A stretch of DNA of 64,000 nucleotides from Burkholderiales bacterium (GTDB taxonomy: Bacteria > Pseudomonadota > Gammaproteobacteria > Burkholderiales > SG8-41): NCBI GenBank assembly GCA_035649495.1, contig DASRJL010000110.1, forward strand, positions 37,219 to 101,218. The letters run 5' to 3'. Made by a program: the position numbers and the translations under genes. The notes beneath the pieces are model-generated. The model made no database searches and was not told the DNA's origin. It saw nothing but the letters and a program-made list of their open reading frames with translations. Of the stretch, positions 15,354 through 61,717 are shown one piece after another (position 1 is the first letter of the stretch; each line of letters starts with the position of its first letter).

Positions 15354-15360
15354 TTAATCA

Positions 15361-30644: not shown

Positions 30645-30712
30645 GACAACCGCTGCCACGCCGTCCGCGGTTTTCCTTTCATCGAAGACCAAACAATAAG
30701 GGAAGGACAATC

Positions 30713-32458: not shown

Positions 32459-32606
32459 TCCATGCGAACCTGATAGGCCGGGTCGCCTGCAGCGTGCTGC
32501 GTCCAGGTATTCCCGCCTTTGGGACGATGGGCATCGTCAGCATCCTAATTGATGACTGCCGTGAAGGCAGCGGTGACTCGGGCAAATAGGTACCCGCGTC
32601 GCCACC

Positions 32607-33116: not shown

Positions 33117-33347
33117 TGGGCTCCCTTTCTCGTCAGGCAACCGGCCTCCCCGTGTGCACAAGCAAGTCCCTGCGACGCTCTAGTCTGAAGAGCGAAAACT
33201 CGTATGTCCACACGAAGTGGACTGTATCCTGGCCCCAGTGAACAGGCACCTGTGGCAAACATTGATTTGAATCAAATGGGGCGATGGTAGGCCTGCTAGA
33301 ATAAGCATCGTTGCCAGCCCAAGGCCGGGCCATTACCATTGGTTTCA

Positions 33348-33707: not shown

Positions 33708-33775
33708 ATCCTCCGCTTAGGTTGTGCGGCGGCCATGGTGGTCGTCGTGTTGCCGTACGTCCATTCGGAGGGTTT

Positions 33776-39600: not shown

Positions 39601-39743
39601 AAGGCTCCGGCGCCGAAGTCATGCAGCGCATCGCCGCCCCCATGATCGGGGGAATGCTTACAGCCCCTCTGTTGTCAATGTTCGTTATTCCAGCAGCTTA
39701 TCTGTTGTTAAACCGCAACCGCAGGAAAGGAGAAGTGCAATGA
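36624..39743 (+). CDS. cusA: CusA/CzcA-family heavy-metal efflux RND pump
   Basis: The 1039-aa ORF starts IRWSI.NRFLVLL and has 12 TM helices and HME-RND signatures. Confidence 0.95.
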
Positions 39744-41894: not shown

Positions 41895-41917
41895 CCAATG
41901 AACCTCTGTTCTACTAT

Positions 41918-41933
41918 TCAAGTGATTAATTGA
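41918..41933. promoter_or_regulatory. Imperfect palindrome TCAAGTGATTAATTGA in the divergent promoter region (candidate ArsR-type operator)
   Basis: 12 of 16 positions are self-complementary. It lies between the ArsR-rhodanese gene and the divergent desaturase gene. Confidence 0.2.
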
Positions 41934-44828: not shown

Positions 44829-45869
44829 TCAAGCTCTAGTCCCGATCGCCCCGATCGCGGAGAAGAGATTCTCGACCGTCTGCCGGGGAATGCCCTTCGT
44901 GATGAACACGAGGCGCGTTCCGTGGTCCGCGCCGGGCCATGCCGCAAGCTCGATGGGAGGATGGAAGAGATGCTGCACCCCCTGCACCACCATCGGGCCG
45001 CTCTTGCCTTCGACGTTGACGAGGCCCTTCACCCGCAGGAGGTCCGGACCGCGGAGCGCCGTCAGGACCTCTATCGTCTGCGTGAACGCCTGCCACGCGA
45101 GCGGCTTGTCGAAGCGAAGCGTGAAAGTCTTGATTGCCTCGTCGTGGTGGTGATGGTGGCCGTGCTCGTCGCCGGCATGGTCCTCTTTCTCCCCGTCGCC
45201 CAGCCAGCGCTCGACCTCTTCCAGGCGTGACTTCGTATTCGTCAGGCCCACGTCAACCAGGAACGCCGGATCCACTTCCCCGTTCAAGGCCCGGGTGAAC
45301 AGCGCGCGCGGGTTGATCTCGCGCAGGCGGCGTTCCAGAGCCTCTACCTGCCCGGCCGGGGCGAGGTCCGTCTTGGTCACCACGATGCGGTCCGCCAGCG
45401 CGACCTGTTTCACCGGCTCGGAAAACGAATCGAGCTGCCCCGGAGAATTGAACGCATCGACCAGCGTGACCACGCAGTCGAGCCGGAACTGGTCGAGCAG
45501 CAGCGAATCGGTCATCAAGGTCTGCATGACCGGCGCCGGGTCGGCGATGCCGGTGGTCTCCACGATGACGCGCTCGAAGTCGATGATCTCGCCGTTGCGG
45601 CGCTTGATGAACAGCTCCCGCAGCGTTTCCTGGAGATCGGTGCGCAGCGTGCAGCACAGGCAGCCGCTGTTCAGCAGCATCATCTGCTCGGACGAGGTTT
45701 CGACGAGGTCGTTGTCGACGCCGATCTCGCCCAGCTCGTTGACGATCACCGCCACGCGGTTCATCTCCGGGCGCTTCACGAGCCGGTTGATGAGCGTCGT
45801 CTTGCCGCTGCCCAGAAAGCCGGTAATCACGGATACCGGAAGCCGTCCCGCCAGTGCGTCCTGCGCCAT
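44829..45869 (-). CDS. CobW/G3E-family metallochaperone GTPase (ZigA/YeiR-like) with His-rich stretch
   Basis: Contains GFLGSGKTTL, the CxCC motif (GCLCCT), the His-rich stretch EHGHHHHHDE and a CobW C-terminal domain. Start at MAQDALAG. Confidence 0.9.
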   Translation of the reverse strand: MAQDALAGRLPVSVITGFLGSGKTTLINRLVKRPEMNRVAVIVNELGEIGVDNDLVETSSEQMMLLNSGCLCCTLRTDLQETLRELFIKRRNGEIIDFERVIVETTGIADPAPVMQTLMTDSLLLDQFRLDCVVTLVDAFNSPGQLDSFSEPVKQVALADRIVVTKTDLAPAGQVEALERRLREINPRALFTRALNGEVDPAFLVDVGLTNTKSRLEEVERWLGDGEKEDHAGDEHGHHHHHDEAIKTFTLRFDKPLAWQAFTQTIEVLTALRGPDLLRVKGLVNVEGKSGPMVVQGVQHLFHPPIELAAWPGADHGTRLVFITKGIPRQTVENLFSAIGAIGTRA

Positions 45870-45941
45870 CAGCGTTCCCGCTGTTTTCCAATGGGGCCTG
45901 CAGTATACTCCAGTGCAATTTCCTGGGAGAACCCTCCGGGC

Positions 45942-46622
45942 ATGAAGGTTCTCGTCGTAGACGATCACGCACTGATCCGCGAGGCGTTGCGCGGCGTCCT
46001 GAAGGAGCTGAAGGACGACGCGACCATCGTCGAGGCGTCCAGCGGGCGCGAGGCCTTGAGTCTCCTCGGCGACCATCCCGACTTCAGCCTCATCCTCCTC
46101 GACCTGAATCTGCCCGACCGGAACGGCTTTGCCGTTCTCGCCGAGCTGCGCGAGCGCTATCCCGCGGTCGCGACCGTGGTGCTCTCGGCTTTCAGCGACC
46201 GCGAAAACATCGCGCGGGCCCTCGACCTGGGAGCGCTCGGTTTCATCCCGAAGTCCGGCTCGCGGTCAGTGATGCTGGGCGCCCTGCGGCTGGTTCTTTC
46301 CGGCGGCATCTACATACCTCCCGACATCCTCGCGCAGCGGGAAACCTCGCCCGCGGAGCCGAAGGCCGGCCGGCCCGCCCGGGACGGACGGCCTCTTTCG
46401 CCGCGCGATGCGGGCCTGACCGAGCGCCAGGTGGAGGTCCTCGCCCTCATGATGCAAGGCAAGAGCAACAAGGCGATCTGCCGGATTCTCGATCTCGCCG
46501 AGCCGACGGTTAAAAATCACGTCACGGCGATATTGAAATCCCTGAAAGTGACCAACCGGACCGAGGCCGTCATTGCAGTAGGTGACTTGGGCTGGGATCT
46601 GCGGTCGACGGCAGGTCGCTAG
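45942..46622 (+). CDS. NarL/LuxR-family response regulator
   Basis: REC domain (VLVVDDH, LDLNLPD, receiver K) plus a LuxR HTH (LTERQ.EVL.L...G.SNK.I...L.....TVK.H). Confidence 0.9.
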   Translation: MKVLVVDDHALIREALRGVLKELKDDATIVEASSGREALSLLGDHPDFSLILLDLNLPDRNGFAVLAELRERYPAVATVVLSAFSDRENIARALDLGALGFIPKSGSRSVMLGALRLVLSGGIYIPPDILAQRETSPAEPKAGRPARDGRPLSPRDAGLTERQVEVLALMMQGKSNKAICRILDLAEPTVKNHVTAILKSLKVTNRTEAVIAVGDLGWDLRSTAGR

Positions 46623-48588
46623 GAAGACCCTCGGCCGCGCCCGCTCGCGACGCCCCGTCGGCGACCCGGCTCACTCTCAGGAGCTGGTTTACCATCGCGC
46701 GCAGCGCCATCGGTGCGACCGGCTTGTGCAGCAGGTGCAAGCCCCGGGCGCGCGCTTCGAGCAGGCGCTCGGGCGCAATGTCGCCCGAGATGAGAAACGC
46801 GGGAATGGGCGCCCGAAACGCCCTCCGCAACCGCTCCACCGCCCCGATGCCGGTGTTCCCGTCGGCCAACCGATAGTCGGAAATGATCAGGTCGGGACGG
46901 CGGTCGTCGCCGTCGAGACTGGCGAGCGCGGCGCGGTCCGATTCGGCGGTGACGACGAAGCATCCCCAGCTTCGCAGGACGCCGCGCATGCCGTCGAGAA
47001 CCAGCGCATCGTCGTCGATCACCACGATCAATCTGCCGGCCGCGGGATCGGCCATGGCGTGGGCCGCTGCGGAAGGCTCCACCGGCCTGCGCCGCGGTGA
47101 AACGAGCGGCAGCGAGACCGCGAAACACGAACCCCTGCCGGGTAACGATACGAGCTCGACCGGATGATTGAGCAGGCGGCACAGGCGATCGACGATGGCG
47201 AGCCCCAGCCCGAGCCCTCCACGGTGCCCCCGATCGGGCGAAGCAAGCTGATAGAACTCCCCGAAGATCTTTTGCGTCTGGTCCGCGGGAATGCCCGCGC
47301 CGCTGTCGCGCACTTCGATCCGGATCCGGCCCCCGCGATGGCGGGCGCCCACGAGGACCCCGCCGCGATCCGTATAGCGCACCGCGTTGGAAACGAGGTT
47401 CAGCAATATCCGTTCCAGCAGGATCGGGTCGCTGCGAACCCACGCGTCACTCGGCACGACGCGCAGCCGCAGACCCTTTTCCCGCGCGGCCGGCGCGAAC
47501 GTCCTCTCGATGCGCTGCAGGATCTGGTCGAGAGCAAGGTCGGTCGGTTCCGGAGCGAGCGCTCCCGCATCGAGCCGGGAGATGTCGAGCAGCGCGTTGA
47601 ACAGATCGTTCATAGCCGTTACCGCGGCGTCGATCTGCGCCGTAACCCGCCCGCGCTCGGCCTCGTCGGTTTCGGTGCGCAACTGGGATACGAACAGGTT
47701 CAAGGCGTGGAGCGGCTGTCGCAGGTCGTGACTGGCCGCCGCAAGAAAGCGCGATTTCGCCAGATTGGCGGCCTCGAGCTGCTGGTAGAGCCGGCCGAGC
47801 TCGTCGTTCATCCGGTTCAGGTTCGTCGCGAGATTTCCGAGCTCGTCCCGGTTCGGGACTTCGAGCCGCCGCGAGAAATCCCCCGAAGCAATCTCGTCGA
47901 ACCTCGTCTCCATGTCCTTCACCGGCTTGATCACCGACCAGGAGATCGCGTATCCGAGCACGAGCGCCAGCGCGATGCTTCCCACGCCGAATCCGAGGAT
48001 CATGAGCTGCGACATCAGGTGCGCCGCCTGGCTCGCCTCGATGCTCGCGACCATGTCGGCCTCCGCGCGGTTCACGAGCTGGTTGGTGAGGCGCTCCATG
48101 CGGTCGGCGAGCGGGCTCGCCTGCGCGACCTGCAACGCCCTGCCCTCGAGCACCTTGCCCTGCCGGATCAGCTCGACCACCCTGGCGACGACCTGGATGA
48201 ATTCGTCGTACTCCTTGCGCAGCTCGGCGAGCAGCCCCACCTCGTCCTTCGCCACGAACTGCAGGCGGTCGAAGTCGTAGCCGAACTGGTTCAGCTGGCG
48301 CAGCGTAGCCTCCAGCGTGCCCTCCTCGGGGACCAGCAGCGCGGCGGTGACGCTGTAGAGCTGCGCCGTCGTGTCGTGCTGGAGCTGGCGGTAGGCGGCG
48401 ATCTTCCGCTGCAAGGACACCACTTCCTCCGCGTGGCGCTGCACGCCGGCCAGCACCTCGAGCCCGACCGCGCCCACCGTGATCAGCAAGACGACGATGG
48501 ACAGAAAGGCCGCGAGCAGCTTGGTGCGTATCGTCACGGGCGCCCGCGCTACGAGCGCGGGGAGCCACTCCGTCAGCCAGCGCTTCAT
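46570..48588 (-). CDS. Hybrid sensor histidine kinase / response regulator
   Basis: A periplasmic helical sensor lies between two TM helices, followed by HAMP, HisKA (SHDLRQPL), HATPase_c (DSGAGI, GLGLAIV) and a C-terminal REC (VIDDD...SDYRL). The start overlaps the SCO stop (ATGA). Confidence 0.9.
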   Translation of the reverse strand: MKRWLTEWLPALVARAPVTIRTKLLAAFLSIVVLLITVGAVGLEVLAGVQRHAEEVVSLQRKIAAYRQLQHDTTAQLYSVTAALLVPEEGTLEATLRQLNQFGYDFDRLQFVAKDEVGLLAELRKEYDEFIQVVARVVELIRQGKVLEGRALQVAQASPLADRMERLTNQLVNRAEADMVASIEASQAAHLMSQLMILGFGVGSIALALVLGYAISWSVIKPVKDMETRFDEIASGDFSRRLEVPNRDELGNLATNLNRMNDELGRLYQQLEAANLAKSRFLAAASHDLRQPLHALNLFVSQLRTETDEAERGRVTAQIDAAVTAMNDLFNALLDISRLDAGALAPEPTDLALDQILQRIERTFAPAAREKGLRLRVVPSDAWVRSDPILLERILLNLVSNAVRYTDRGGVLVGARHRGGRIRIEVRDSGAGIPADQTQKIFGEFYQLASPDRGHRGGLGLGLAIVDRLCRLLNHPVELVSLPGRGSCFAVSLPLVSPRRRPVEPSAAAHAMADPAAGRLIVVIDDDALVLDGMRGVLRSWGCFVVTAESDRAALASLDGDDRRPDLIISDYRLADGNTGIGAVERLRRAFRAPIPAFLISGDIAPERLLEARARGLHLLHKPVAPMALRAMVNQLLRVSRVADGASRAGAAEGLPSDLPSTADPSPSHLLQ

Positions 48589-49178
48589 CGGGGTTTCGCT
48601 TCCCCGGACAGGTTTTTCAGGTCGCGGAGCATCTCGTCCGGATTGAAACGAGTCCCCATGTATTGCACGCGCAGCGTTCCGCTCCGATCGACGAGGGATG
48701 TGAGAAAAGTGTGGTCCACGTCGCCGCGGGGCGTCTTCTTGTAGTAAACCCCGTAATGCCTGGCCACTTCGCGTATCTCAGCCGGTGTGCCGCTCAGGAA
48801 CGACCAGCCGCGGGGATTTGCCCGGTACGCCTCGGCATAGCGCTTGAGCACTGCCGGCGTATCGCGCTCGGGGTCCACCGTGATCGAGACGAACTGGACG
48901 TCGGGCCCGAACGAGGCGCCGAGTCTGTCCTGCAGGCCGGCCATGGTAGCCGTGAGCAGCGGACAGGTGTCGGCGCAGCTCGCAAAGATGAACGTGATCG
49001 CGAGGACCTTGCCGCGCAAGTCCTTCAGGGCGACGCGCCTGTCGTCCTGACTGGTCAGCGTGAACTCCGGGGCGGGACCGATTTTTGCGAGGCGCTCGTT
49101 CTTGCGGGACTCATGGCATGGAGCGTCGGCAGGCCACGCGAGGGCAACCGCAAAAACGACGGCGATTGCCCGGTCCAT
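48585..49178 (-). CDS. SCO1/SenC-family copper chaperone (thioredoxin fold)
   Basis: Contains the CxxxC motif (CADTCP), FVSITVDPERDTP and DHT. Start at MDRAIAVV. Confidence 0.85.
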   Translation of the reverse strand: MDRAIAVVFAVALAWPADAPCHESRKNERLAKIGPAPEFTLTSQDDRRVALKDLRGKVLAITFIFASCADTCPLLTATMAGLQDRLGASFGPDVQFVSITVDPERDTPAVLKRYAEAYRANPRGWSFLSGTPAEIREVARHYGVYYKKTPRGDVDHTFLTSLVDRSGTLRVQYMGTRFNPDEMLRDLKNLSGEAKPR

Positions 49179-49189: not shown

Positions 49190-50218
49190 TCAAGCCTTGA
49201 GCTCCTTCCTCAGGGCATGGAGAAAGCGCCAGTCTGTGCCCTGGGCGATGATCTTCTGCGGGGTCGACTTGATCATTCCCGCCTCCTGCAGCCGCAAAGC
49301 GTAGAAGCGAATGGTGTCCTCGGGGTCGTACTCGCGCCATTTGCCGTAGGGCAGCTCCCTCATGACCTGGAGCGCGTACTCGTAGCGGCCCGCATAGCCC
49401 TTGTCGACGAGTGCGCGTGCCGCCCCCTGTGGATCGGCCGCGCATGCGTCGGCCGACTTGAGAATCGCGCGCAGCGCGCGCCTGGTCGCTACCGGGTTCC
49501 TGCGCACGAATTCCTTCCGCGCCGTAAGCAGACAGCAGAAATACTGCGACCAGGGACGGTCGGTCGCGCTGTTGACGATCACGTGGCCGACCTTGCGCGC
49601 CCTCAGTTCCTGAGGCTGGGGCGGGAACCCGAGAAACACGTCAGCCTTCCCTTCCAGGAACAGGCGCATCGACCCTTCGTTGGTGTACGGACCCAGATGC
49701 CCTTCCGGCGAGATCCACTTGATGTCCCGGTGCGGGTCGAGTCCGACATTCGCCGCGATGCTCGCCAGGAAGACGTGCTCCGCGCCGTTCAAGGACGCAA
49801 CCGCGGCGACTTTGCCTTTCAGGTCACGGATGCGCTGGATCCGCTCCGTGGCGACCACCTCGAAACAGCCGACGTGGACCCCCGCGAGAAACACCACCGG
49901 GTCGCCCGCCTCGACGCGGATGATGTTGGGGCCGACGAAATTCAGGCTCATGTCCGCGTCCCCCGCTGCCAGGCGCACCGAAACCGCGCCGGTCGGCATG
50001 TCCACGTAGCTCACGTCCGTGAATCCTTCGGCCCGCAGCAGATCCTCCGCGATGTACTGGGGCGCCCAGCAGATGCTGCCTGTCTTCAACAGCCGCAGAC
50101 GCGTCGTCTCCGGCGGCGGCTCGGCGCCGGCGGCTCCGCCTCCCATTCCGAGGAAGGCCGTTCCGGCGAGAGCAGAACTCACGAATTCCCTGCGGCTCCA
50201 TCCCCGTTCTCGCCTCAT
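49190..50218 (-). CDS. Tat-signal NMT1/THI5-like (NitT/TauT-type) periplasmic binding protein, paralog 1
   Basis: Contains SRREFV (twin-Arg), AEPPPETTRLRLL, VHVGCFE, DRPWSQYFCC and a C-terminal DWRF....LRKELKA. Confidence 0.8.
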   Translation of the reverse strand: MRRERGWSRREFVSSALAGTAFLGMGGGAAGAEPPPETTRLRLLKTGSICWAPQYIAEDLLRAEGFTDVSYVDMPTGAVSVRLAAGDADMSLNFVGPNIIRVEAGDPVVFLAGVHVGCFEVVATERIQRIRDLKGKVAAVASLNGAEHVFLASIAANVGLDPHRDIKWISPEGHLGPYTNEGSMRLFLEGKADVFLGFPPQPQELRARKVGHVIVNSATDRPWSQYFCCLLTARKEFVRRNPVATRRALRAILKSADACAADPQGAARALVDKGYAGRYEYALQVMRELPYGKWREYDPEDTIRFYALRLQEAGMIKSTPQKIIAQGTDWRFLHALRKELKA

Positions 50219-50282
50219 ATGCGTCTCCTCCGAAACGACTGCGTAGCAGCTTTCGAACAGCCTGCTTCCCCGGTGGGCGGCA

Positions 50283-51302
50283 TCATGCCTTCATCTCTTT
50301 CTTGAGTTCTCGCCAAAAGCGCCAGTCCGTTCCCCGCGCGATGATCTTTGCCGGGCTCGACTTGATCATGCCAGCCTCGTTGAGGCGCAACGCATAAAAG
50401 CGCACGGTATCCTCGGCGTCGAAGTCCCGCCAGCGGCCGTAGGGCACGCTCTTCATGGCCTGGAGCGCGTAGTCGTAGTTCTTCGTGAATCCGCGCTCGA
50501 CGAGAGTCCGGGCAGCGCGCTCGGGCTGGTCGGCGCAAATCTGGTCCGCCTTGAGGATGGCCCGGATCGCGCGTTTGGTGGCAACGGGGTGCTTCTGGAC
50601 GAACTGCCGGTTCCCGGCCACCAGACAACAGAAGTACTGCGACCAGGGCCGATCCACGGCGCTGTTGACTACCACGTGCCCGATCTTCTTCGCGCGGAGC
50701 TCTTGAGGGTCAGGCGGAAACCCCATATAGCCGTCGATCTTCCCTTCGGCAAGCAGCCGCTTCGCCTCTGCCGGCGGCCGTTCGATGAAGTCGACATCCT
50801 TCCCCGCGCGGAGCCCCACGTATGCCAGCATGGCGGTGAGGAATACGTGGGGACTCGATCCGAACGCCGGTACTGCGACGGTCTTCCCGCGGAGGTCCCG
50901 GATGGCGCGGACGCGATCGGTGCCGAAGAGTTCGAAGCATCCCGCGTGCACTCCGGCGAGGAGCACGAGCGGAGTGCCGAGGTCGATCTGGACCACCGAC
51001 GGGGCGATGAACCCCTGACTGATATCGAGTTCTCCTGAGCCCAGGCGCCCGTACGCGGCGATGCCCTCCTCCGGAAACTCCAGGTACTGGACGTCCGTGA
51101 ATCCTTCGGCACGAAGCAATCCCTCTGCCACGTACTGAGGCGCCAGGCACAGGCTGGGAAACTTGAGGAGCCGCAGCCGGGTCGTCTCCGGCGGCGGTTC
51201 AGCCGCCGCGCTTGCCGGCCGCAACCCCAGGACCGCGCCCGTTCCTGCAAGAGCGGCGGACCCAAGAAACGCCCTGCGGTCCGATCGAATTCCCGTGCTC
51301 AC
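50283..51302 (-). CDS. Tat-signal NMT1/THI5-like periplasmic binding protein, paralog 2
   Basis: Contains DRRAFL, AEPPPETTRLRLL, VHAGCFE, DRPWSQYFCC and DWRFWRELKKEMKA. Confidence 0.8.
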   Translation of the reverse strand: MSTGIRSDRRAFLGSAALAGTGAVLGLRPASAAAEPPPETTRLRLLKFPSLCLAPQYVAEGLLRAEGFTDVQYLEFPEEGIAAYGRLGSGELDISQGFIAPSVVQIDLGTPLVLLAGVHAGCFELFGTDRVRAIRDLRGKTVAVPAFGSSPHVFLTAMLAYVGLRAGKDVDFIERPPAEAKRLLAEGKIDGYMGFPPDPQELRAKKIGHVVVNSAVDRPWSQYFCCLVAGNRQFVQKHPVATKRAIRAILKADQICADQPERAARTLVERGFTKNYDYALQAMKSVPYGRWRDFDAEDTVRFYALRLNEAGMIKSSPAKIIARGTDWRFWRELKKEMKA

Positions 51303-51338
51303 GTATCTCCTTCCCGGCCATTCCGTGCGCCGACGGCG

Positions 51339-52352
51339 TCAAGCCTTCAACTCTTTCCTGAGCTCTTTCCAGAAACGCCAATCCCCCCCCTGCGCGATGA
51401 TCTTTGCCGGGCTCGACTTGATTATCCCGGCGTCGTGCAGGCGCAGCGCGTAGAAGCGCATCGTATCCACGGGGTCGCATTCTCTCCATTTGCCGTAGGG
51501 AATATCCTTGAGCGCTTGCAGGGCGTAGTCGTACCGCGGCGTGAAGCCCTTGTCGACTATCGATCGAGCAGCGACCTCCGGCTGGAGGGCACAGATGTCG
51601 GCAGCCTTGAGGATGGCCCGTAGCGCCCGCTTGGTGGCGACCGGGTGCTTTTGAACGAATCCACGATTCCCGATTGCCATGCAACAGAAGTACTGCGACC
51701 AGGGCCGGTCCACTGCGCTGTTGACGATCACGTGGCCGATCCTTCTTGCTCGCAACTCCTGTGACGCCGGAGGAAGCGCCAGGAGCCCGTCGATCGTGCC
51801 GTCCGCGAGGAGCTGCATCGCGGTCGATGGCGCATGGAAGACCCAGCGCACGTCCCTGGCGGGGTCCACGCCGACGTAGGCGAGCATGCTCGACAGGAAA
51901 ACCTGTTCCGTCGATCCCATCGCCGGTATCGCCACGGTTCTCCCCTTCAGGTCGCGGACCGAGCGAATCCGCTCCGTCGCGAAGACTTCGAGGCACCCGA
52001 TGTGAACACCGGCGAGGACAAAGACAGGATCGCCGGCGTCGACATGGACGACGGTAGGAGCGGCGAAGAACAACGTGATGTCGGCCTGACCCGCGATCAG
52101 CGCCTTCACCTTGGCGGCGGTGGATTCCACTTTGACGTATTGCACGTCGGTGAACCCCTCGGTCTTCAGGAGCTCCCCGGCGACGTATTCGGGCGCCACG
52201 CAGACCGCCGGCAGCCGAATCAGGCGAAGACGCGTTGTCTCCGGCGGTGGCTCGGCGACAGCGAATCCGGGTCGAACTCCCAGCACGGCAGCCGCTCCCG
52301 AGAGCGCGGTGCCCAGAAATTCTCTACGGCTCCAACGGTCCTCGTTATTCAT
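51339..52352 (-). CDS. Tat-signal NMT1/THI5-like periplasmic binding protein, paralog 3
   Basis: Contains SRREFL, AEPPPETTRLRLI, VHIGCLE, DRPWSQYFCC and DWRFWKELRKELKA. Confidence 0.8.
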   Translation of the reverse strand: MNNEDRWSRREFLGTALSGAAAVLGVRPGFAVAEPPPETTRLRLIRLPAVCVAPEYVAGELLKTEGFTDVQYVKVESTAAKVKALIAGQADITLFFAAPTVVHVDAGDPVFVLAGVHIGCLEVFATERIRSVRDLKGRTVAIPAMGSTEQVFLSSMLAYVGVDPARDVRWVFHAPSTAMQLLADGTIDGLLALPPASQELRARRIGHVIVNSAVDRPWSQYFCCMAIGNRGFVQKHPVATKRALRAILKAADICALQPEVAARSIVDKGFTPRYDYALQALKDIPYGKWRECDPVDTMRFYALRLHDAGIIKSSPAKIIAQGGDWRFWKELRKELKA

Positions 52353-52413
52353 CGATACTCATCACAAGCCATCGGCGTTCATGCACGCGGAGTCGCCACG
52401 CGCGCACGGCGCA

Positions 52414-53439
52414 TCAGGCTTTCAACTCTTTCCTGAGCTCTTTCCAGAAACGCCAATCGGCCCCCTGGTTGATGATCTTCGCCGGGCTCGACTTGATCAT
52501 CCCGACTTCGCGCAGCCGCAGGGAATAGAACTGCACGGTGTCCTCTGGATCGAGCTCGCGCCAGCGGCCGTACGGCAGCTCCTTGATGGCCTGCAGGGCA
52601 TAGTCGTAGCTCTTCGCCCGGCCCCACGCGACGGCTGCTCTGGCGGCTCTCTCGGGATCCGCGACGCAGAGATCGGCCGCTTTCAGGATGGCACGCAGCG
52701 CACGCTTCGTGGCCACCGGATTCTTTCGCACGAAGTCCCTGTTGCCGAACAGCATGCAGCAGAAGTACTGGGACCACGGCCGGTCTACGGCGCTGTTGAC
52801 GACGACGCGCCCGATTTTCTTCGCGCGGAATTCCTGCGGGTTCGTCGGGAAGCCGAGGTAGGCGTCTATCCGGCCTTCCGCGAGAAGCTTCATCGATTCA
52901 TCGGCGGAATGGTTGACCCAGTTGATGTCCTTGCGCGGGTCGAGGCCCACGTACGCCGCCATGCTCGCGAGAAACGCGTAGGGGCTGGGATCCAGCTCGG
53001 GAACGGCGACCGTGCGTCCCTTCAAGTCCCGGATCCCGCGGATCTGCTCGCTACCCAGCAGCTCGAAACAGCCGACATGTTCTCCCGCCAGCATGACGAT
53101 CGGATCGCCCGCCTCGATCCGCAGGATCACCGGCGCCGCAAAGTGCCCGCCGATGTCCGCCGCCCCGGAGGCGAGGGCCCGCTCCACTCCCCGCGTTCCG
53201 CCCTCCGTCGGCAGATACTGGACGTGCGTGAAGCCCTCGGCACGAAGCAGCGTATCGGCGACCCATTCCGGACTGCGGCAGGTGCTGGGGGAGATGGGAA
53301 TCCGCAGGCGCGTCGTCTCCGGCGGCGGTTCGGCCGCTGCCGGTGCATATCGAAGTCCCAGCAAGGCCGAAGTACCTGCAAGGCCTACGGCGTTCAGGAA
53401 TTCACGCCGGCGCCACCCTTTGCCTTCCCCGTTGCGCAT
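52414..53439 (-). CDS. Tat-signal NMT1/THI5-like periplasmic binding protein, paralog 4
   Basis: Contains RRREFL, AEPPPETTRLRI, EHVGCFE, DRPWSQYFCC and DWRFWKELRKELKA. Start set at MRNGEGKGW (53439), not the longer track ORF. Confidence 0.8.
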   Translation of the reverse strand: MRNGEGKGWRRREFLNAVGLAGTSALLGLRYAPAAAEPPPETTRLRIPISPSTCRSPEWVADTLLRAEGFTHVQYLPTEGGTRGVERALASGAADIGGHFAAPVILRIEAGDPIVMLAGEHVGCFELLGSEQIRGIRDLKGRTVAVPELDPSPYAFLASMAAYVGLDPRKDINWVNHSADESMKLLAEGRIDAYLGFPTNPQEFRAKKIGRVVVNSAVDRPWSQYFCCMLFGNRDFVRKNPVATKRALRAILKAADLCVADPERAARAAVAWGRAKSYDYALQAIKELPYGRWRELDPEDTVQFYSLRLREVGMIKSSPAKIINQGADWRFWKELRKELKA

Positions 53440-53479: not shown

Positions 53480-54514
53480 TCAGTGCAGTCTAGCACTGCG
53501 GGGCGTGGCGCCACGACCGATTGCCGCCAACTCCCAGGCCTTTGCCGCTCCCACGAGCGCCTCGAAGGCGCCGCCGCTTTCCAGCAGCGCGCGCTTCGCC
53601 TTCGCATCGAGCGGCTGCTCGATGCCGGCATCGTCGAGCGGCATCTTGTCCTCACGGACCGCTTTCATGAGGCGCTGTATCTCACCTGCGGCGTGCGCCG
53701 GCGTCTGCAACAGCACGAGCCGCTTCATGCCCTCCGGATTGCTGGGCACGTGGCAGCTGTCGCATTGCGCGTCGCGCATCCTGAGCGCCAGCGCCTTGTA
53801 GGCGGTATCGAGCTTCAACAGATACGGATTGTCCATGCGGAACAGCCCGTCAAAGAGCGTTACCTGAGGCTGTACGCGCCCTGCCGCATCGGTCCACATC
53901 CACTTGTCGTCGAACTTTGCCTGTTGCACGGGCCCGGAGCTGACGATGGGCGGTGTCGTCCCGCGATCGGTGAACTGCGCGACTTTTACCTTGATCGTCC
54001 CGGGATCGATCCAGAAGAGGATCGAGTTCGCCTTCTGATACGCGCTCCACTTCGCCTCGTCGTGCCAGAACGGGTACGGAAACTGGCCCGGCGCGAGCCG
54101 GTTGCGAAACGCGGTTTCCATGCGCATCAGGAAGAGATTCTCCCGCGCGTCGTACTCGACGGTGTGCCGGCCGTTGAACATGAACAGCGGCACGTACAGG
54201 CCGGCGAGCACATCGGGGGCGAACTGGGTGAGCGTGGTTTCCTTGAGGACCGTCCCGGGATCCTTGTGCACCCTCCCCCAAAGCACGCGCGGAGCGAGAT
54301 CGCGCCTCAGCACCGAATCCTGAAACAAGCCTTGCCGGCAGCGATCGAACGCCGCCTGGTCGCCGGGTTCCGCTGGCGGACACAGGCGGGAGAGCTCCGC
54401 GGCGAGGTCCGCCGCAAGCCGCTCGAGCTGCGGCAGCAGCCCGAGCGGGTCCCTCTCGGCCCCGTGTGCGGCTCCGCCGATCAATCCGACCAGAATCAGG
54501 ACGATGACGCGCAT
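53480..54514 (-). CDS. Hypothetical secreted protein with C-terminal CxxCH (cytochrome c / PSCyt-like) motif
   Basis: A signal peptide follows MRVIVLILVG. The single heme-binding motif CDSCH is followed by ...LMKAVREDKMP, resembling planctomycete-type cytochrome c domains. The N-terminal ~250 aa are unassigned. Confidence 0.5.
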   Translation of the reverse strand: MRVIVLILVGLIGGAAHGAERDPLGLLPQLERLAADLAAELSRLCPPAEPGDQAAFDRCRQGLFQDSVLRRDLAPRVLWGRVHKDPGTVLKETTLTQFAPDVLAGLYVPLFMFNGRHTVEYDARENLFLMRMETAFRNRLAPGQFPYPFWHDEAKWSAYQKANSILFWIDPGTIKVKVAQFTDRGTTPPIVSSGPVQQAKFDDKWMWTDAAGRVQPQVTLFDGLFRMDNPYLLKLDTAYKALALRMRDAQCDSCHVPSNPEGMKRLVLLQTPAHAAGEIQRLMKAVREDKMPLDDAGIEQPLDAKAKRALLESGGAFEALVGAAKAWELAAIGRGATPRSARLH

Positions 54515-54542
54515 GTGCACGCTCCTCGCTCGCATCGCCGTC

Positions 54543-55784
54543 TCAGCGCGCCGCATCCGCGGTCTGTCGCGTGGGTTTCAGGTAGTTGCGCACCAGGTGA
54601 TCCGCTATCTTCCTGCCCATGGTTTCCCCGACCTCGGTCGAATTGCGAAAATGGATACCGCCCCAGACGCGCACCAGGCGATGTTCCTCGCCCATTTGCG
54701 CCACACTGGAGAACGTCCGCTGCTTCGACGGATCGACGATGTCGGTGACAGTGAAGGTCAACGCTCCGGTGCCGAAGACCGATTCCAGCACTCCCGCCGC
54801 GGCGCCGACGTTGATGCCGGCCTGCGATGGGTACTCCGGATGCATCGGGGTCGCGTTCAGCGGCGTCCATCCGGCGTCGCGCTCCGTAGCGGCATTGTTG
54901 TCCAGGTCGCCGTTGCGGACCGCCGTAACCGGCCGCCAGAAGTTGTAGTGAAACTTCGCGTCCCAGTCGATGATGAAGCAGTTCGCCAGCCCCATCGAAA
55001 GCAGGGCGTAGAGCCGCGCGTTCTCGGCGACACCCAGGCCCTTTGCATCGGAGAGTTGCCGGGCCGCCTGATACCACGCCGGTCCCAGGTTGGTCTGCGT
55101 CCAGAAATTCACGGCAGCGGTCTGTTCGGGCGTCCGCTTCGCGCTCTTCGCGGCGCCGAAGTCCTTGGTCTCGTTATAGTCGCGTGCATAGAGCGCGCTC
55201 GAGAGCGCCGGTGGCGGCACGGGGCGGAACTGGTCCGCACGGTCGAGGCCCCAGGGCTTCGCCTGTGCGTACTGCGGGAAGAGCGGCGGCGCGGTCGGTA
55301 TCCAGACCCCGGGGGTGGTCACCGGACGGTAGGTATCGGGCGCGCTCGTCGCGTCGTTCGAGCGGTCGGCGTACACGGCTTCTGCGATTCTCTCGCCGAG
55401 CGCGATGCCTTCGGACCTGGGCTGTCCCTCGGGAATCCCCTTGAGTGAAGCCGCGTAGGCCTCGTCGATCTTCGCCTTCTGCCCGGGATAGAGTCGCACG
55501 AGCATTTCGCGCGCCGCGGCCGCTGCGGCAGCCTCGGCCGAAGCCCGGGACGCGACTGGTCCCGTAGCCACATAGCGGGTGTAGCGGCCCTGAACGCCGT
55601 TCACCGCATCGGCCATCGCGACATGCATCATCGCCAGACTGCGGGTCCAGGGATTCCCGGCGACATTGGCAGTCTTCATGACTTCAAGCGCCGTGTGGTT
55701 CCAGTCGGTGATGACGTCGGCCTGGGCGGCCGGCGCGCTCGCGAGCAGCGCGAGCCCGATGATTGCCGAGTGAAGAGTTTTCAT
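54543..55784 (-). CDS. PAP2-superfamily, vanadium-dependent haloperoxidase-like secreted protein
   Basis: Signal peptide, VITDWN N-terminal helix bundle, K-x6-RP (KFHYNFWRP), HPEYPSQAG and RVWGGIHFR motifs. Start at MKTLHSAI. Confidence 0.75.
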   Translation of the reverse strand: MKTLHSAIIGLALLASAPAAQADVITDWNHTALEVMKTANVAGNPWTRSLAMMHVAMADAVNGVQGRYTRYVATGPVASRASAEAAAAAAAREMLVRLYPGQKAKIDEAYAASLKGIPEGQPRSEGIALGERIAEAVYADRSNDATSAPDTYRPVTTPGVWIPTAPPLFPQYAQAKPWGLDRADQFRPVPPPALSSALYARDYNETKDFGAAKSAKRTPEQTAAVNFWTQTNLGPAWYQAARQLSDAKGLGVAENARLYALLSMGLANCFIIDWDAKFHYNFWRPVTAVRNGDLDNNAATERDAGWTPLNATPMHPEYPSQAGINVGAAAGVLESVFGTGALTFTVTDIVDPSKQRTFSSVAQMGEEHRLVRVWGGIHFRNSTEVGETMGRKIADHLVRNYLKPTRQTADAAR

Positions 55785-56025
55785 TGACAGGCTCCTTGAC
55801 AGGTTGAATTCCATTACCCGATTGCGACGGGTCCATTGGACTCGCAATCACCGGTATGGATAAATCACCCTGAAGGATGGCTCGCACGCTGCGCGCGTCG
55901 CAGCGCGCGCAGCGCAGCATCTTGAAAGACTTCACTTATCCGGCCGGCAGGACGCCGGCCGGGCACCTACCAAAGGTCCCGGGACTTAAGTATCGGGCGG
56001 GAAGGTGCGGTCAGACTGCAGTGCT

Positions 56026-57273
56026 TCAGATGTTCGCTTCCAGTATGTACAGCCCGCCCGCGAACCGGTCCACCGCGTACACCACCCCGCGCTCGTCCAC
56101 CCAGACGTCGTTGATCTGGATCGCGCCGACGCGCGACATCGGGGGAGCGCCGGGCACGAAGTAGGCGATCTCCTTCGGCTGGTAGGGATTGGACACGTCG
56201 AACGCCCGCACGCCGCCGCCGAAATAGGTGGCGAATATGGTGGTATCCGAGCGGTAGGAGCACGGTCCCGGCTGGTTCTCGTGCATGTTGTGCGAGCCGT
56301 AGCGGCCGCCGCGCTTGCCGAACACGTCCTTATCCGGCAGCGGGAAGGTCGCCACGGGAACGAGGTTGGATTCCGTGCGCGCGTCCACGACCCAGGTCGG
56401 CTTGGGCCAGTCGGCGAGCGCGTCCCTCACGCACTCGTCGCTGATGATCAGGAAGCCGCTGCTGAAGAGCGGCAGCACCGTGTGCGTGAAGCCGTTGTAG
56501 GGCGGCGAGTACTGCAGGTGCCCCACCGGCTTCGGATGCGCCTTGTCGGCGATGTCCAGTATCCACGCGCCGCCGTCGATATACGCCACGTAGGCCCGGT
56601 CCGGCTTTTGCGGGTAGACGGCGCAGTTGTGCGGCCGATAGCCGCCGTCGAACTTCGGGTGGCGCGGCGGCGGCGGCGCCGAATCGCCCTTGCGCGTCCC
56701 CGGGTACCACCAGCGTCCGACTTCCTGCGGCTTCGAAGGCTTACGTATGTCTATGATCTGGTAGAACTGATCGTCGTTCTTGTGCGTGGGCTCGAAATCG
56801 GCGGACCCGGAGGTGAGGTGCACGTACTCGCCGTCCACGAAGAACACGCAGTGCGCCCCGCGCGAGGACGGCCCCGAGGTGTCGTAGTGCGTGATCAGCT
56901 TCGGCTGCTCGGGCTTGCTCACGTCGAAAAGATCGAAGCCCGCGGGCTTCTGTCCCCATTGCCTGGTCTGGTAGGCCACCGCCATGATGTCGCCCACCAC
57001 GTCGAGCGAGTTGGAACGCACGTCCGCGTGCGGCAAGTCGGTCTGAACGATCATCCTGGGATTCTTCAGATCGGTGACGTCCAGCGCCGTGAAGTTCTTG
57101 GGCGCCGACTCGTGGGCAAGCCACATGATCCGCCGGCCGTCCTTCGTCGCCTGGATATTGATCCCCTCCCCGACGCCGCCGAAACCGGCGAGCTCGTGGT
57201 GAGCGATGAGCTTCATGTTGAGCGCCAGTGTCTGGCTCGCCTGCGCACCCGGCCTCATGCCTTCTGCTGCCAT
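56026..57273 (-). CDS. LVIVD-repeat beta-propeller protein
   Basis: Repeated strings of the form ..FD(V/I)S.P..PK.. (ALDVTDLKNP, FDLFDVSKPEQPK, IIDIRKPSKPQ, WILDIADKAHPKP, RAFDVSNPYQPK, GLYILE). There is no signal peptide. The ATG directly follows the upstream stop. Confidence 0.6.
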   Translation of the reverse strand: MAAEGMRPGAQASQTLALNMKLIAHHELAGFGGVGEGINIQATKDGRRIMWLAHESAPKNFTALDVTDLKNPRMIVQTDLPHADVRSNSLDVVGDIMAVAYQTRQWGQKPAGFDLFDVSKPEQPKLITHYDTSGPSSRGAHCVFFVDGEYVHLTSGSADFEPTHKNDDQFYQIIDIRKPSKPQEVGRWWYPGTRKGDSAPPPPRHPKFDGGYRPHNCAVYPQKPDRAYVAYIDGGAWILDIADKAHPKPVGHLQYSPPYNGFTHTVLPLFSSGFLIISDECVRDALADWPKPTWVVDARTESNLVPVATFPLPDKDVFGKRGGRYGSHNMHENQPGPCSYRSDTTIFATYFGGGVRAFDVSNPYQPKEIAYFVPGAPPMSRVGAIQINDVWVDERGVVYAVDRFAGGLYILEANI

Positions 57274-58215
57274 CTAGCTTCCTTTCCCGATAGTGCGCCG
57301 CCGCGGTTTTGCCCCCTTCAAGCCGGCGCGTTGTCTCAAGACCGCGTGTATGGCCGCGGTATCTTCCATGCCCCAGCCCTGCTTGAGGGCGGCCGTATAG
57401 TACGGCAGGCTCGCCTCGAACAGCGGCGTCGGTATGCGCAAGCCCCTGCAGTACGCCCTGATGATATCGATGTCCTTCTGATAGATCTTCGATTTCATGT
57501 GCGCCGGCAGGTAATGCCCCGCCACCATGAGCGGACCGCGCACCTGGAACATGCGCGAAGAGCCGGCGCCATCGCCGATCACGCGGTACAGCAGCCCGAG
57601 GTCGAGCCCGGCCTTCTCGCCCACCACCATCGCCTCGGCAGTGGACAGGTTGTGTATCGTGACGAGCAGGTTGGCGACGAACTTGAGCTTCGATCCCACG
57701 CCGAACTCGCCGCAATAGTAGGTCGATCGCGAGAACCCGTCGAGCACCGCCCTGCACCGGTTGAAAGCCCGGCGGTCGCCGCTCGCGTAGATCGCGATAT
57801 CCCCGGCCGCGGCCTGCGCGCCGGTGCCGCTGATCGGGCAGTCGAGCATGAGAACCTTGCGCCGCGCCAGCCCGCGCCGCAGCTTCTCCTTCAATTCGAG
57901 CGTCATCGTGCTCGCTTCGATCACGATAGCTCCCGGCCGGGCGCCCGCCGCGATGCCCTCCTTGCCGAAGTACGCTTCCTCCATCGCCGCGGGCGAAGGC
58001 AGTGACGTGATAAGAATCGGTGCCCGCGCGGCGACTTCCGCACAGGAACCCGCGGGCTTCCCTCCCGCCTTCGCGAAAGCTCTGACCGCGGCCGGCGCAG
58101 GATCGTATCCAATGACCCGGTAGCCCGCGCGCAGCAGGTGCCGGGCAAAAGCGCCGCCCATGATGCCGAGGCCGATCTGCCCTACCGTTCCCTTGCTTTT
58201 CCGCTTGCGAGCCAC
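57274..58215 (-). CDS. NAD(P)-dependent oxidoreductase, 3-hydroxyisobutyrate / 6-phosphogluconate dehydrogenase-like family
   Basis: Rossmann motif GQIGLGIMG, with the characteristic DCPISG and GSKLKFV.N motifs. GTG start. Confidence 0.85.
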   Translation of the reverse strand: MARKRKSKGTVGQIGLGIMGGAFARHLLRAGYRVIGYDPAPAAVRAFAKAGGKPAGSCAEVAARAPILITSLPSPAAMEEAYFGKEGIAAGARPGAIVIEASTMTLELKEKLRRGLARRKVLMLDCPISGTGAQAAAGDIAIYASGDRRAFNRCRAVLDGFSRSTYYCGEFGVGSKLKFVANLLVTIHNLSTAEAMVVGEKAGLDLGLLYRVIGDGAGSSRMFQVRGPLMVAGHYLPAHMKSKIYQKDIDIIRAYCRGLRIPTPLFEASLPYYTAALKQGWGMEDTAAIHAVLRQRAGLKGAKPRRRTIGKGS

Positions 58216-58240
58216 GGATCACCGGTCACTGGTCACTGCA
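58213..58240. repeat. Tandem heptad repeat (CACGGAT CACCGGT CACTGGT CACTGCA; reverse complement GTGACCA/GTGACCG/GTGATCC)
   Basis: A 7-nt periodicity is visible at the 5' edge of the dehydrogenase gene. Confidence 0.6.
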
Positions 58241-60676: not shown

Positions 60677-60715
60677 CGGCCGGCAGCGCACGGTCCAAAG
60701 AACGGCCGGCACACA

Positions 60716-61717
60716 ATGAAGGAGGAGAAGACCATGAGAGCTCGGCGTTTCGTACTGCTTGGACTGCTGGCCGCGTTATCGCCTGCGGCGGCGATCGCGG
60801 CACAGGGCAAGGACGACTACCCCAGCCGGCCGGTGCGCATGATCGTGCCGTTCGCGCCGGGCGGGGCATCCGATACCGTCGCGCGCATCATCCAGCCGCC
60901 GATGGCCGATCTCCTGAAGCAGCAGGTGGTCGTGGACAATCGCGGCGGCGCCGCCGGCAACATCGGCGTGGAAGTCTCCGTCCGCGCCAATCCCGACGGC
61001 TACAACTTCCTGCTCGGGAACGTCGGCACGATGGCGATCAACCCGGTGTTCTACCTGAAATTTCCCTACAAGCCCCTGAAGGACCTCATTCCGGTCACGC
61101 AGATCGTGGACGTTCCCGGCTGCCTCGTGGTCCATCCTTCCCTGCCCGCGAAGAACGTCAAGGAGCTGATCGCCCACATGAAGGCGAACCCGGGCAAGCT
61201 GAACTACGGGGCGCCCGCGCCGAGCAGCGCCAACGCGCTCGAGATGCACATGTTCCTCGCCGCCACCGGGACCAACGCGGTGCAGATCGCCTACAAGGGA
61301 GGCGCCGGGCCGGCGATGATCGGCCTGCTGGGCAACGAAGTGCAGATGATGTTCGTGACGTTCTCCTCCGCCATCGGCTTCGTGAAGCCGGGCCGGGTCA
61401 GGATGCTCGCCGTCATCTCGCCGGAGCGCAATCCCGCCCTGCCCGAAATCCCGACGATGCGCGAGCAGGGGCTCAACATGACGGTCGGCTCCTGGCAGGG
61501 ATTGTTTCTGCCGAAGGGTACTGCTAAGCCCATCGTGGACAAGCTCTATCGCGTCGGCGTCGACATGATGAAGGATCCCCAGGTCGTGAAGCGCATGGGT
61601 GAAACCGGGATCACGATCGTCACCAGCAAGAGCCCGGCGGAATTCACGGACTTCGTAAAAGCGGAGACCGACCGCTTCGGAAAAGCGATCAAGGACGGCA
61701 ACATCCCTACGGAATGA
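60716..61717 (+). CDS. Bug-family (TctC-like) substrate-binding protein
   Basis: Contains YPSRPVRMIVPFAPGGASD..AR, NRGGAAGN and a conserved C-terminus SPAEFTDFVKAETDRFGK. Confidence 0.85.
   Translation: MKEEKTMRARRFVLLGLLAALSPAAAIAAQGKDDYPSRPVRMIVPFAPGGASDTVARIIQPPMADLLKQQVVVDNRGGAAGNIGVEVSVRANPDGYNFLLGNVGTMAINPVFYLKFPYKPLKDLIPVTQIVDVPGCLVVHPSLPAKNVKELIAHMKANPGKLNYGAPAPSSANALEMHMFLAATGTNAVQIAYKGGAGPAMIGLLGNEVQMMFVTFSSAIGFVKPGRVRMLAVISPERNPALPEIPTMREQGLNMTVGSWQGLFLPKGTAKPIVDKLYRVGVDMMKDPQVVKRMGETGITIVTSKSPAEFTDFVKAETDRFGKAIKDGNIPTE

Follow-up and report, generated by a model that had tools for sequence, protein, structure and literature searches.

Four tandem genes for NMT1-like binding proteins

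This analysis concerns an array of four genes (49190-53439, minus strand) in a 64,000-nt stretch of a Burkholderiales genome (GCA_035649495.1, contig DASRJL010000110.1, positions 37,219 to 101,218; "the window" denotes this whole stretch). The genes encode cysteine-rich NMT1-like binding proteins, predicted to be exported by the twin-arginine translocation (Tat) pathway, and are followed by genes for a Sco/SenC-type copper chaperone and a hybrid sensor histidine kinase. As detailed below, this gene order recurs well beyond the source genome and suggests that the encoded proteins may form a single sensory module.

The first gene of the array (52414-53439) encodes a 341-aa protein with an RRREFL signal that scores 69.8 bits against the Pfam family NMT1 and 42.3 bits against NMT1_2; its mechanically called open reading frame (ORF) extends to 53655, and the start at 53439 yields MRNGEGKGWRRREFL. 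The second (51339-52352, 337 aa, NMT1_2 72.6 bits), referred to here as copy 3, provides the residue numbering used throughout. It is followed by a third gene with a GTG start (50283-51302, 339 aa, NMT1_2 69.4 bits) and by a fourth, next to the Sco gene, whose product carries a 7-residue insertion (49190-50218, 342 aa, NMT1 43.3 bits). From upstream to downstream, the intergenic gaps are 61, 36 and 64 nt. The array is part of a longer row of closely spaced genes that all lie on the minus strand, within which intrinsic terminators and promoters did not exceed shuffled expectation. A preliminary description of this DNA had proposed four tandem paralogs of about 340 aa with small gaps and shared sequence blocks. 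This is borne out, as the four genes are complete ORFs of 337 to 342 codons whose products all contain AEPPPETTRLR, DRPWSQYFCC, PVAT(K/R)RA(L/I)RAILK and DWRF. Compared with copy 1 over their full length, the other copies are 56-60% identical, and mean column identity is 73%, far above chance; the third-position GC of the array ORFs is high, like that of the real genes of this genome.

The NMT1-like identity suggested in the same description was likewise recovered by profile search, all four products lying above the gathering score of both NMT1 (PF09084) and NMT1_2 (PF13379), with 38-73 bits for cut-offs of 20.5 and 24.7; copy 3 also shows a weak match to Phosphonate-bd. The AlphaFold2 (AF2) model of copy 3 displays the standard two-lobe fold of class II binding proteins (predicted local distance difference test, pLDDT, 90.3; predicted TM-score, pTM, 0.85). 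In Foldseek searches with this model, the taurine-binding protein TauA (6ssy) is the best match, the Bordetella orphan 3qsl is also found, and NrtA, CmpA, SsuA and the pyrimidine synthase THI5 match as TauA does, with E-values of 1e-16 to 1e-12, TM-scores of 0.6-0.8 and 12-21% identity.

Close relatives are found outside the source genome for individual members of the array. A protein 100% identical to copy 3 is present in a Burkholderiales metagenome-assembled genome (MAG), where it is labelled "ABC transporter substrate-binding protein", the nearest relatives of the first gene product are 81-83% identical and come from Burkholderiales and Rokubacteria loci, and the fourth is 80-87% identical to copies in three other loci (L006, L007, L008). 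More generally, the best identity of a family member is 62% (median) within its own array versus 87% to its best relative in another genome. At a 70% threshold, 231 proteins fall into 95 groups, and of 209 copies just 9 have an array-mate in their own group. Judged by these identities, the paralogs of one array diverged long ago and are not redundant. Their position within the array is not conserved, and positional orthology was considered and dismissed: Sco-proximal copies form no clade, and identity is 0.557 among position-1 copies versus 0.559 between position-1 copies and others. Divergence between paralogs includes residues 140-158 or so, whose counterpart in TauA is the N-terminus of the ligand-binding helix, and those flanking C51. 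The C-terminal third (Y..WR....ED..RFYALRL.E.GM.KS.P....GTDWRF..ELK.ELK) is conserved to a degree unusual for a binding protein.

A recurrent association with Sco and a sensor kinase

The Sco/SenC-type protein (48585-49178, minus strand) is a predicted thioredoxin-fold copper chaperone of 197 aa with an N-terminal hydrophobic anchor and a match of 112 bits to the Pfam family SCO1-SenC (PF02630). Its start at 49178 lies 11 nt past the end of the array, and its stop codon overlaps the start of the kinase gene in an ATGA at 48585-48588. The kinase (46570-48588, minus strand) comprises, according to Pfam, a transmembrane (TM) segment, a periplasmic four-helix bundle (4HB_MCP_1), a second TM segment, and HAMP, HisKA, HATPase and REC domains. 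The location of the array directly upstream of SCO1 and a hybrid kinase, as first described, is thus correct. Not mentioned at that time was a NarL/FixJ-type response regulator gene (45942-46622, plus strand; Response_reg 84 bits, GerE 65 bits), convergent with the kinase gene and overlapping its 3' end by about 50 nt, an arrangement that is the same in 11 related loci. An ORF for a CobW protein (44829-46265, minus strand) was initially taken as the downstream neighbour of the kinase; it is over-called, with a true start near 45875, and had masked the response regulator.

The distribution of these genes was surveyed from both ends. With the NMT1-like protein as a query, a word-indexed search returned at least 8000 clusters (90% identity), most of them 60-66% identical to the query, and an exhaustive profile search of 1.84 billion representatives (50% identity clusters) returned 1086 at E <= 1e-30; the kinase sensor domain was found in 1013 proteins at E <= 1e-10. 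Neighbourhoods were then compared, by unbiased clustering of adjacent ORFs followed by detection with hidden Markov models, in 77 genome loci from a scan of one genome per species and, as a reverse test, in 80 metagenome loci fetched with the kinase sensor domain alone. In the genome loci, the recurrent neighbours of the NMT1-like genes are a Sco gene and a sensor kinase gene. The dominant order, seen in about 50 of the 77, is one to at least seven NMT1-like genes, then Sco, then a kinase with the same periplasmic domain, and many of the remaining loci are short contigs. Kinases in these loci have Sco directly upstream in 46 of 48 cases and an NMT1-like gene upstream in 46 of 47. When the kinase served as the anchor, 58 of 66 testable metagenome loci had Sco upstream and 39 of 43 had an NMT1-like gene there, and several of the apparent Sco-less exceptions do show a Sco gene when their gene list is read by eye.

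The junction between the last two genes is conserved as well. In 103 of 114 Sco-kinase pairs, conserved residue 8 of the kinase begins 3-23 nt past the Sco stop, which means that the two genes overlap, and they are probably translationally coupled. The placement beside Sco and a kinase, to which the preliminary description had attached meaning, is therefore a property of a conserved, overlapping gene module.

Record titles place the module in about eight phyla. Those of the 77 genome loci name Betaproteobacteria, Alphaproteobacteria (Mesorhizobium, Sinorhizobium/Ensifer, Rhizobium, Microvirga), Rokubacteria/Methylomirabilota, Binatia and Acidobacteria, along with Eisenbacteria, Syntrophobacteraceae, Fimbriimonadales and Acidimicrobiaceae, each of the last four as the label of a single MAG. 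Complete modules exist in culturable rhizobia, namely Mesorhizobium delmotii, M. kowhaii, Sinorhizobium mexicanum (plasmid pEmeITTGR7a), S. americanum and Ensifer adhaerens. NCBI annotates the S. mexicanum plasmid module as five copies of "ABC transporter substrate-binding protein" (three of them in the module string), a "SCO family protein", a "GAF domain-containing protein" and two copies of "response regulator". S. fredii NGR234 was considered as a model strain and set aside, as it has a single solitary member, without Sco or kinase.

The predicted Tat signal

A Tat signal had been proposed for each of the four proteins from a twin-arginine motif at the N-terminus. The motif is indeed present in all four, as [SDR]RRxF[LV] with a stretch of 15-21 uncharged residues after it and an A-x-A site just before the invariant EPPPETT, and by a TATFIND-like rule it is found in 156 of 162 family members; 145 of the 162 have at least 13 uncharged residues. 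By these motifs, members of the family are predicted to be exported by Tat. In distant relatives (34-50% identity; alignment A4, P0122-P0269), a lipobox LLxGC often follows the RR motif.

A putative cysteine-histidine site at the expected ligand pocket

Five cysteines are invariant in the four copies and in 77 aligned homologs. Across 231 full-length members from 80 loci, C51, C120, C223 and C224 are conserved at 100%, H117 at 99% and C254 at 98%, and the signature residues sit in the motifs G-x-H-x-G-C-x-E-L and D-R-P-W-S-Q-Y-F-C-C. Among relatives as distant as 34% identity, all keep the CC pair and at least 90% keep C51, H117 and C120, but C254 is lost, and this residue probably lies outside the core site. 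The earlier claim of five invariant cysteines therefore stands for the array and its close family, and does not extend to C254 in the distant relatives. In a subgroup of the latter, the C-terminal tail bears an extra F-x-C-D/E motif.

The position of these residues was approached through known structures. When aligned to TauA with HMMER (E 7e-8), the protein has E122 at the place of Glu106, a residue of the hinge that taurine binding requires, C120 two residues before it, and C223 and C224 at the places of Leu204 and Asp205, respectively. C51 presumably lies in the first turn of helix 1, about two residues from TauA Ser32, if the alignment is extrapolated with the N-terminal sequence of TauA. 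That sequence agrees with the residue numbering in the description of the TauA pocket, which is lined by Leu204, Asp205, Ser32 and Ser60 (PMC6906117). By alignment, four of the five cysteines are thus on, or at most two residues away from, TauA pocket positions. These four would not be dispersed, and the pocket would not be that of an ordinary sulfonate- or nitrate-binding protein: among the TauA ligand residues, only Glu106 is retained (as E122), Gln30, Thr132 and Asp205 are not kept, and the position of Thr132 varies among paralogs. Residue coupling was also examined, by mean-field direct coupling analysis (DCA; 482 sequences, effective number 262, 44850 pairs). Pair 116-226, at rank 71 of 44850, is the only clear signal. 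It agrees with the two hinge strands being paired in antiparallel fashion, an arrangement that would bring C120 next to C223; the neighbourhood of C254 is uncoupled, in columns that are near-invariant and give weak signal. On this basis, C51, H117, C120, C223 and C224 would converge at the floor of the inter-domain cleft.

Alignment to THI5 places C223 and C224 inside its CCCFC motif, on the second hinge strand. This motif is cited as an essential iron-binding motif of THI5 (PMC10512395, citing Coquille et al. 2012). Two of the four motif cysteines are matched, and the catalytic residues Lys62 and His66 are replaced in the alignment by Ala and by Pro99, respectively, which puts the present proteins outside the THI5 class of hydroxymethylpyrimidine phosphate (HMP-P) synthases as judged from these residues.

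According to the main rival of a sensory role, the NMT1-like proteins would be effectors: periplasmic enzymes or buffers for copper or another metal, matured by Sco, with the two-component system sensing the metal or substrate and regulating them. Sco proteins are metallochaperones for periplasmic or membrane copper sites and here follow the array, in operons structural genes commonly precede their regulators, and copper or respiration genes are found nearby in the window (CusCBA), in L001 (ccoNOQP-GHIS and a major facilitator superfamily, MFS, gene) and in L021 (ccm). An invariant pocket core in all paralogs, as for a prosthetic site, is well explained in this way, and C223/C224 coincide with the catalytic iron motif of THI5. 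Selection for dosage or storage, in contrast, predicts similar and recent duplicates, and the paralogs are old, divergent and non-redundant; neither Lys62 nor His66 of THI5 is conserved, no catalytic residues can be proposed, and the extreme conservation of the kinase periplasmic domain described below, together with the Sco-kinase overlap, suggests that periplasmic proteins are the partners of the kinase. An effector role is on balance unlikely, albeit a serious contender.

No adjacent cognate transporter

The preliminary description had noted the lack of an ABC (ATP-binding cassette) permease or ATPase within 20 kb of the array. A Pfam scan of the ORFs of the 64 kb selected by third-position GC found no NitT/TauT permease or ATPase, and the sole ABC protein of the window is a 1206-aa fused exporter (21229-24849), of a type that does not use binding proteins. 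Likewise, no adjacent NitT/TauT permease or ATPase was found in the 77 genome loci. Just 8 of the fetched loci have an ABC ATPase signature, and the few ABC genes within 10 kb of an array, considered as candidates for a cognate importer, were discarded: those examined are of the oligopeptide type and on the opposite strand, or lie at a distance of over 3 kb. Homologs are consequently not routinely accompanied by ABC genes. Scores against the NCBIfam models TIGR01728, TIGR01729 and NF040735 are 56-89, 27-37 and 29-49, for cut-offs of 163.5, 304 and 300, respectively. By family cut-offs, genomic partners and ligand residues alike, the predicted proteins fall outside the NitT/TauT importer subunits.

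It could still be argued that these are ordinary orphan solute-binding proteins of the NitT/TauT type that feed a distant ABC permease with sulfonate-, nitrate- or pyrimidine-like nutrients, a role that has been proposed for orphans of the Bug/TctC kind, and that their link to Sco and the kinase is at most regulatory. Their NMT1/NMT1_2 fold, the rank of TauA, SsuA and NrtA as best structural matches and the public annotation as ABC transporter substrate-binding proteins all agree with this, solitary copies exist, and in two rhizobial loci a permease and ATPase pair is encoded 3-8 kb from the array. Against it stand the lack of adjacent transporter genes, scores far under the SsuA_fam, TauA and SaoX cut-offs, the replacement of TauA Leu204 and Asp205 by Cys-Cys, a linkage to Sco and kinase that holds from either anchor, and the sizes of the two families, more than 8000 clusters (90% identity) versus 1013 kinase-sensor proteins (E <= 1e-10). 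We regard transport as very improbable. The preference expressed earlier for a role in sensing or in metal or redox handling, rather than uptake, is strengthened by the conserved and probably translationally coupled Sco-kinase module.

Constant input and variable output

In 53 Sco proteins of the module, CxDxCP and a downstream DH, which contains the distal histidine, are conserved. By its PF02630 match, CxxxC motif and distal histidine, the module protein belongs to the Sco/SenC class, as predicted from sequence. The periplasmic domain of the kinase is also strongly constrained: over 47 loci, LQRxIAAYRQxQHDTTxQLY, LRQLNQFGYDxDR and RLERLTNxLVNxAEADMV are conserved at 90% or more, and the domain has no cysteine. 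For the kinase of the window, the Pfam 4HB_MCP_1 score of 27.0 bits is exactly at the cut-off. The AF2 model of its residues 1-235 is all-helical, with four helices between two TM segments (pLDDT 81.5), and resembles NarQ, MCP2201, Tsr, Tar, Adeh_2942 and LytS-N with TM-scores (TMt) that reach 0.7-0.8; Foldseek E-values were weak, as is usual for helical bundles. Superposition on LytS-N of the XylFII-LytS complex (5xsj) gave a TMt of 0.80 and a root-mean-square deviation of 2.4.

The cytoplasmic side differs between lineages. Loci of the Burkholderiales type encode a hybrid kinase and a NarL-type regulator (REC-GerE), those of rhizobia and Rokubacteria encode a GAF-kinase, a REC protein and a REC-adenylate/guanylate cyclase (Guanylate_cyc), and a third type of output is a REC-only protein. 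A constant periplasmic input combined with a variable cytoplasmic output is the signature of a sensory module.

Another alternative is that the NMT1-like proteins are co-receptors without any cofactor, their cysteines forming disulfides or a thiol-disulfide switch that is serviced by Sco as an oxidoreductase and that reports the periplasmic redox state or thiol-reactive oxidants. Sco/SenC indeed resembles thiol-disulfide oxidoreductases (PMC9147068). Since the cysteines are odd in number, at least one thiol must stay free; the kinase sensor domain has no cysteine of its own, and in several phyla a recurrent neighbour of the arrays is a gene resembling vanadium haloperoxidases, a family that produces hypohalous acid. 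Export of folded proteins by Tat from the reducing cytoplasm would, on general grounds, be unusual for disulfide-dependent proteins; moreover, the copper-binding CxxxC...H triad of Sco is intact, and a pure redox sensor has no obvious need for seven or more divergent paralogs. A mere redox switch therefore appears rather improbable.

A possible co-receptor module

The reading that we favour, with a probability of about 50%, is that the NMT1-like proteins are periplasmic, Tat-exported receptors that form one sensory module with Sco and the kinase and feed no transporter. The proteins would be exported by Tat in a folded state, and their invariant Cys4-His site would hold a thiophilic species, either as a cofactor or as a captured ligand. 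The first guess for this species would be copper that Sco supplies or keeps in check, in view of the presence of Sco itself, of cysteine and histidine as typical Cu(I) ligands and of one lineage in which ccoNOQP-GHIS and an MFS gene precede the module. Next would come an Fe-S cluster that is inserted prior to export, given Tat export, the four cysteines and tandem-Cys ligation known elsewhere, as might a redox-active set of thiols. The variable rim of the cleft would give each old paralog a specificity of its own, and the conserved C-terminal helices could dock the loaded receptor on the single four-helix-bundle sensor of the kinase, a contact for which conservation is the argument. Sco would act as a second periplasmic partner, loading copper or resetting thiols. 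The kinase would then signal through the NarL-type regulator in the present locus, and through REC-cyclase regulators in rhizobia and Rokubacteria.

Several observations weigh against this proposal. An operon in which a two-component system follows the putative receptor genes is just as typical of effector genes under its regulation, the signal could be sensed directly by the sensor domain of the kinase, and the established role of Sco is in the assembly of the CuA site of cytochrome oxidase. That the core of the pocket is invariant across the paralogs speaks for a single cofactor common to them and not for a range of ligands. The clustering of the cysteines is derived from the TauA alignment (E 7e-8) and from weak DCA signals, pairs 51-119 and 54-220 ranking only around 300 in near-invariant columns, and, with regard to export, the Pfam TAT_signal profile matches copy 3 alone among the four N-termini (15.6 bits for a cut-off of 22.7); the TIGR01409 Tat profile gave no match at E <= 0.01 for the four copies. 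Finally, about a dozen adequately covered loci carry solitary copies (L004, L005, L016 and L035) or arrays without Sco or kinase, and the solitary copy of S. fredii NGR234 (L164, pNGR234b 223448-224434) has no Sco or module kinase within 9 kb.

More broadly, the family could represent an unrecognised class of periplasmic metallo- or thiol-based receptors with the NMT1 fold, exported folded by Tat with a Cys4-His site that a dedicated Sco loads or services. Combinatorial arrays, drawn from about 100 subtypes, would converge on one conserved kinase and serve the signalling of soil bacteria in response to copper, redox or thiol-reactive compounds in about eight phyla, all under the present annotation of an ABC transporter subunit. 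This generalisation is offered tentatively, as a possibility that we hold with less than even confidence.

Comparison with known systems

Among known systems, the module appears to work most like binding-protein-dependent sensor kinases, in that a receptor gene adjoins that of a kinase with a predicted helical periplasmic sensor. It differs from them in the class of the receptor (NMT1, Tat, Cys4-His), in receptor multiplicity, in the Sco partner and in the breadth of its distribution. The xylose sensor XylFII-LytS/YesN of Clostridium beijerinckii also uses a non-transport receptor with a binding-protein fold, encoded beside a two-component system, that docks on the four-helix bundle of the kinase, as is proposed here. 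XylFII is, however, a single-copy, sugar-type (class I) protein without a Cys site or a Sco partner, and it is not known to have a Tat signal. In E. coli, the hybrid kinase TorS, whose sensor is all-helical, reads both the binding protein TorT and the membrane-anchored redox protein TorC (PMC8534201), which parallels the NMT1-like proteins and membrane-anchored Sco of the present module. TorT is nonetheless a class I protein present in a single copy and without a Cys cluster, the sensor of TorS consists of two stacked bundles, and the ligand, trimethylamine N-oxide (TMAO), is known.

That several binding proteins converge on one four-helix-bundle receptor is familiar from the chemoreceptors Tar, Trg and Tap. 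Their sensors, which work with MBP, RBP/GBP and DppA, are of the same type (Pfam 4HB_MCP_1/TarH), whereas these binding proteins also serve ABC transporters, their genes are unlinked to those of the receptors, and the output is chemotaxis instead of a kinase. A thiol-based precedent is the AioX-AioS-AioR system, where AioX, a protein of the phosphonate-binding family, is a periplasmic arsenite sensor that uses thiols and acts on a kinase. AioX differs in belonging to another family, being single-copy, lacking a Sco partner, acting with a sigma-54 regulator and being encoded beside arsenite oxidase genes.

As for Sco, senC, which encodes a Sco homolog, is invariably cotranscribed in Rhodobacter with the redox-responding regBA two-component system (PMC9147068). 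SenC/PrrC with RegB-RegA (PrrB-PrrA) is thus another case of a Sco homolog tied to a two-component system, without binding-protein genes; in the present module, unlike there, the Sco gene overlaps the kinase gene. RegB is not known to have a periplasmic four-helix bundle. TauA, SsuA, NrtA and CmpA share the fold and the Pfam families of the NMT1-like proteins, which differ from them by an identity of 12-21%, sub-cut-off scores, the lack of a permease or ATPase partner, cysteines at ligand residues and a Tat signal. THI5/NMT1 shares the fold and, by alignment, a CCCFC motif that encompasses C223/C224, but is a cytosolic single-turnover enzyme whose Lys62, His66 and two of four cysteines have no match here.

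Full-text literature searches found no description of the combination of NMT1-like proteins, Sco, kinase and Tat. Indirect sensing through binding proteins is already established, whereas the thiol site and the Sco partner are without a described counterpart. As far as these searches show, the three elements that the module unites, namely a binding-protein fold with a thiol site, a Sco chaperone and a Tar-type sensor kinase, have not been reported together. If confirmed, they would constitute a new type of input for two-component signalling and provide Sco with a defined signalling partner, a question pending ever since a link between SenC/PrrC and RegBA was made. There are also consequences for annotation, since more than 8000 clusters (90% identity) are labelled "ABC transporter substrate-binding protein" or "NitT/TauT family" and the present evidence indicates that most of them are parts of a signalling module. 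Transporters would then be over-counted when metabolism is reconstructed from soil genomes, with Rokubacteria/Methylomirabilota, Burkholderiales, rhizobia and Binatia among the groups affected. The existence of complete modules in culturable rhizobia makes the question directly testable.

Other genes in the vicinity

Upstream of the array and on the same strand, the window encodes a secreted 358-aa protein (53480-54556) with a single CDSCH motif, of the CxxCH heme-c type, that appears to be an accessory component and has no relative in Pfam, NCBIfam or the Protein Data Bank (PDB). Its gene is found upstream of the array in the window and in L036, L067, L084, L089 and L090, i.e., only in loci of the Burkholderiales type, and always lies between the array and a gene for a secreted protein related to vanadium haloperoxidases and PAP2 (54543-55847, minus strand; PDB 4CIT, E 1e-24; weak VCPO_N and VCPO_2nd matches in Pfam). 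The haloperoxidase-like gene adjoins arrays in 10 of the first 83 loci, in several phyla, and is thus a frequent but non-obligatory neighbour; it was noted at L001, L028-L030, L036, L042, L067, L089, L090 and L136. In the copy of the window, the PSGH motif reads YPSQAG and the acid-base histidine appears to be missing. Further upstream lie genes for an LVIVD-repeat protein (56026-57273, minus strand), 178 nt from the haloperoxidase-like gene and on the same strand, and for a 3-hydroxyisobutyrate-dehydrogenase-like protein (57274-58218, minus strand). No counterpart of the LVIVD protein turned up in the other loci, and its assignment as the methanethiol oxidase MtoX was rejected (14.7 bits for a cut-off of 650).

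In three other loci (L001-L003, positions 1-8450), the arrays directly follow a cbb3 oxidase operon, ccoNOQP-GHIS, and an MFS gene, and in L021, L055 and L071 the cytochrome c maturation genes ccmC/E/F/G/H lie upstream of the arrays. These neighbours may hint at a link with respiration or copper, or may be coincidental. In the window, a CusC/CusB(-CusF fusion)/CusA copper-silver efflux system (33704-39743, plus strand) is encoded in a stretch of lower GC content, 10 kb from the array, with a gene for an ArsR-rhodanese fusion regulator close by (41235-41933, minus strand).

The remainder of the window includes three genes for receptors of the TctC/Bug family of tripartite tricarboxylate transporters (30632-31702, 60677-61717 and 61603-62757, plus strand). 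No corresponding membrane components were found among the window ORFs scanned, and these receptors are a second kind of orphan binding protein in this genome. No tRNA, rRNA or other Rfam family was found anywhere in the 64 kb. A cluster for a MoxR AAA ATPase, DUF58, VWA and BatA proteins and a trypsin-like protease is located at 25237-30644, and the segments 14500-20400 and 31700-33700 have a lower GC content (0.57-0.60) and few ORFs with high third-position GC.

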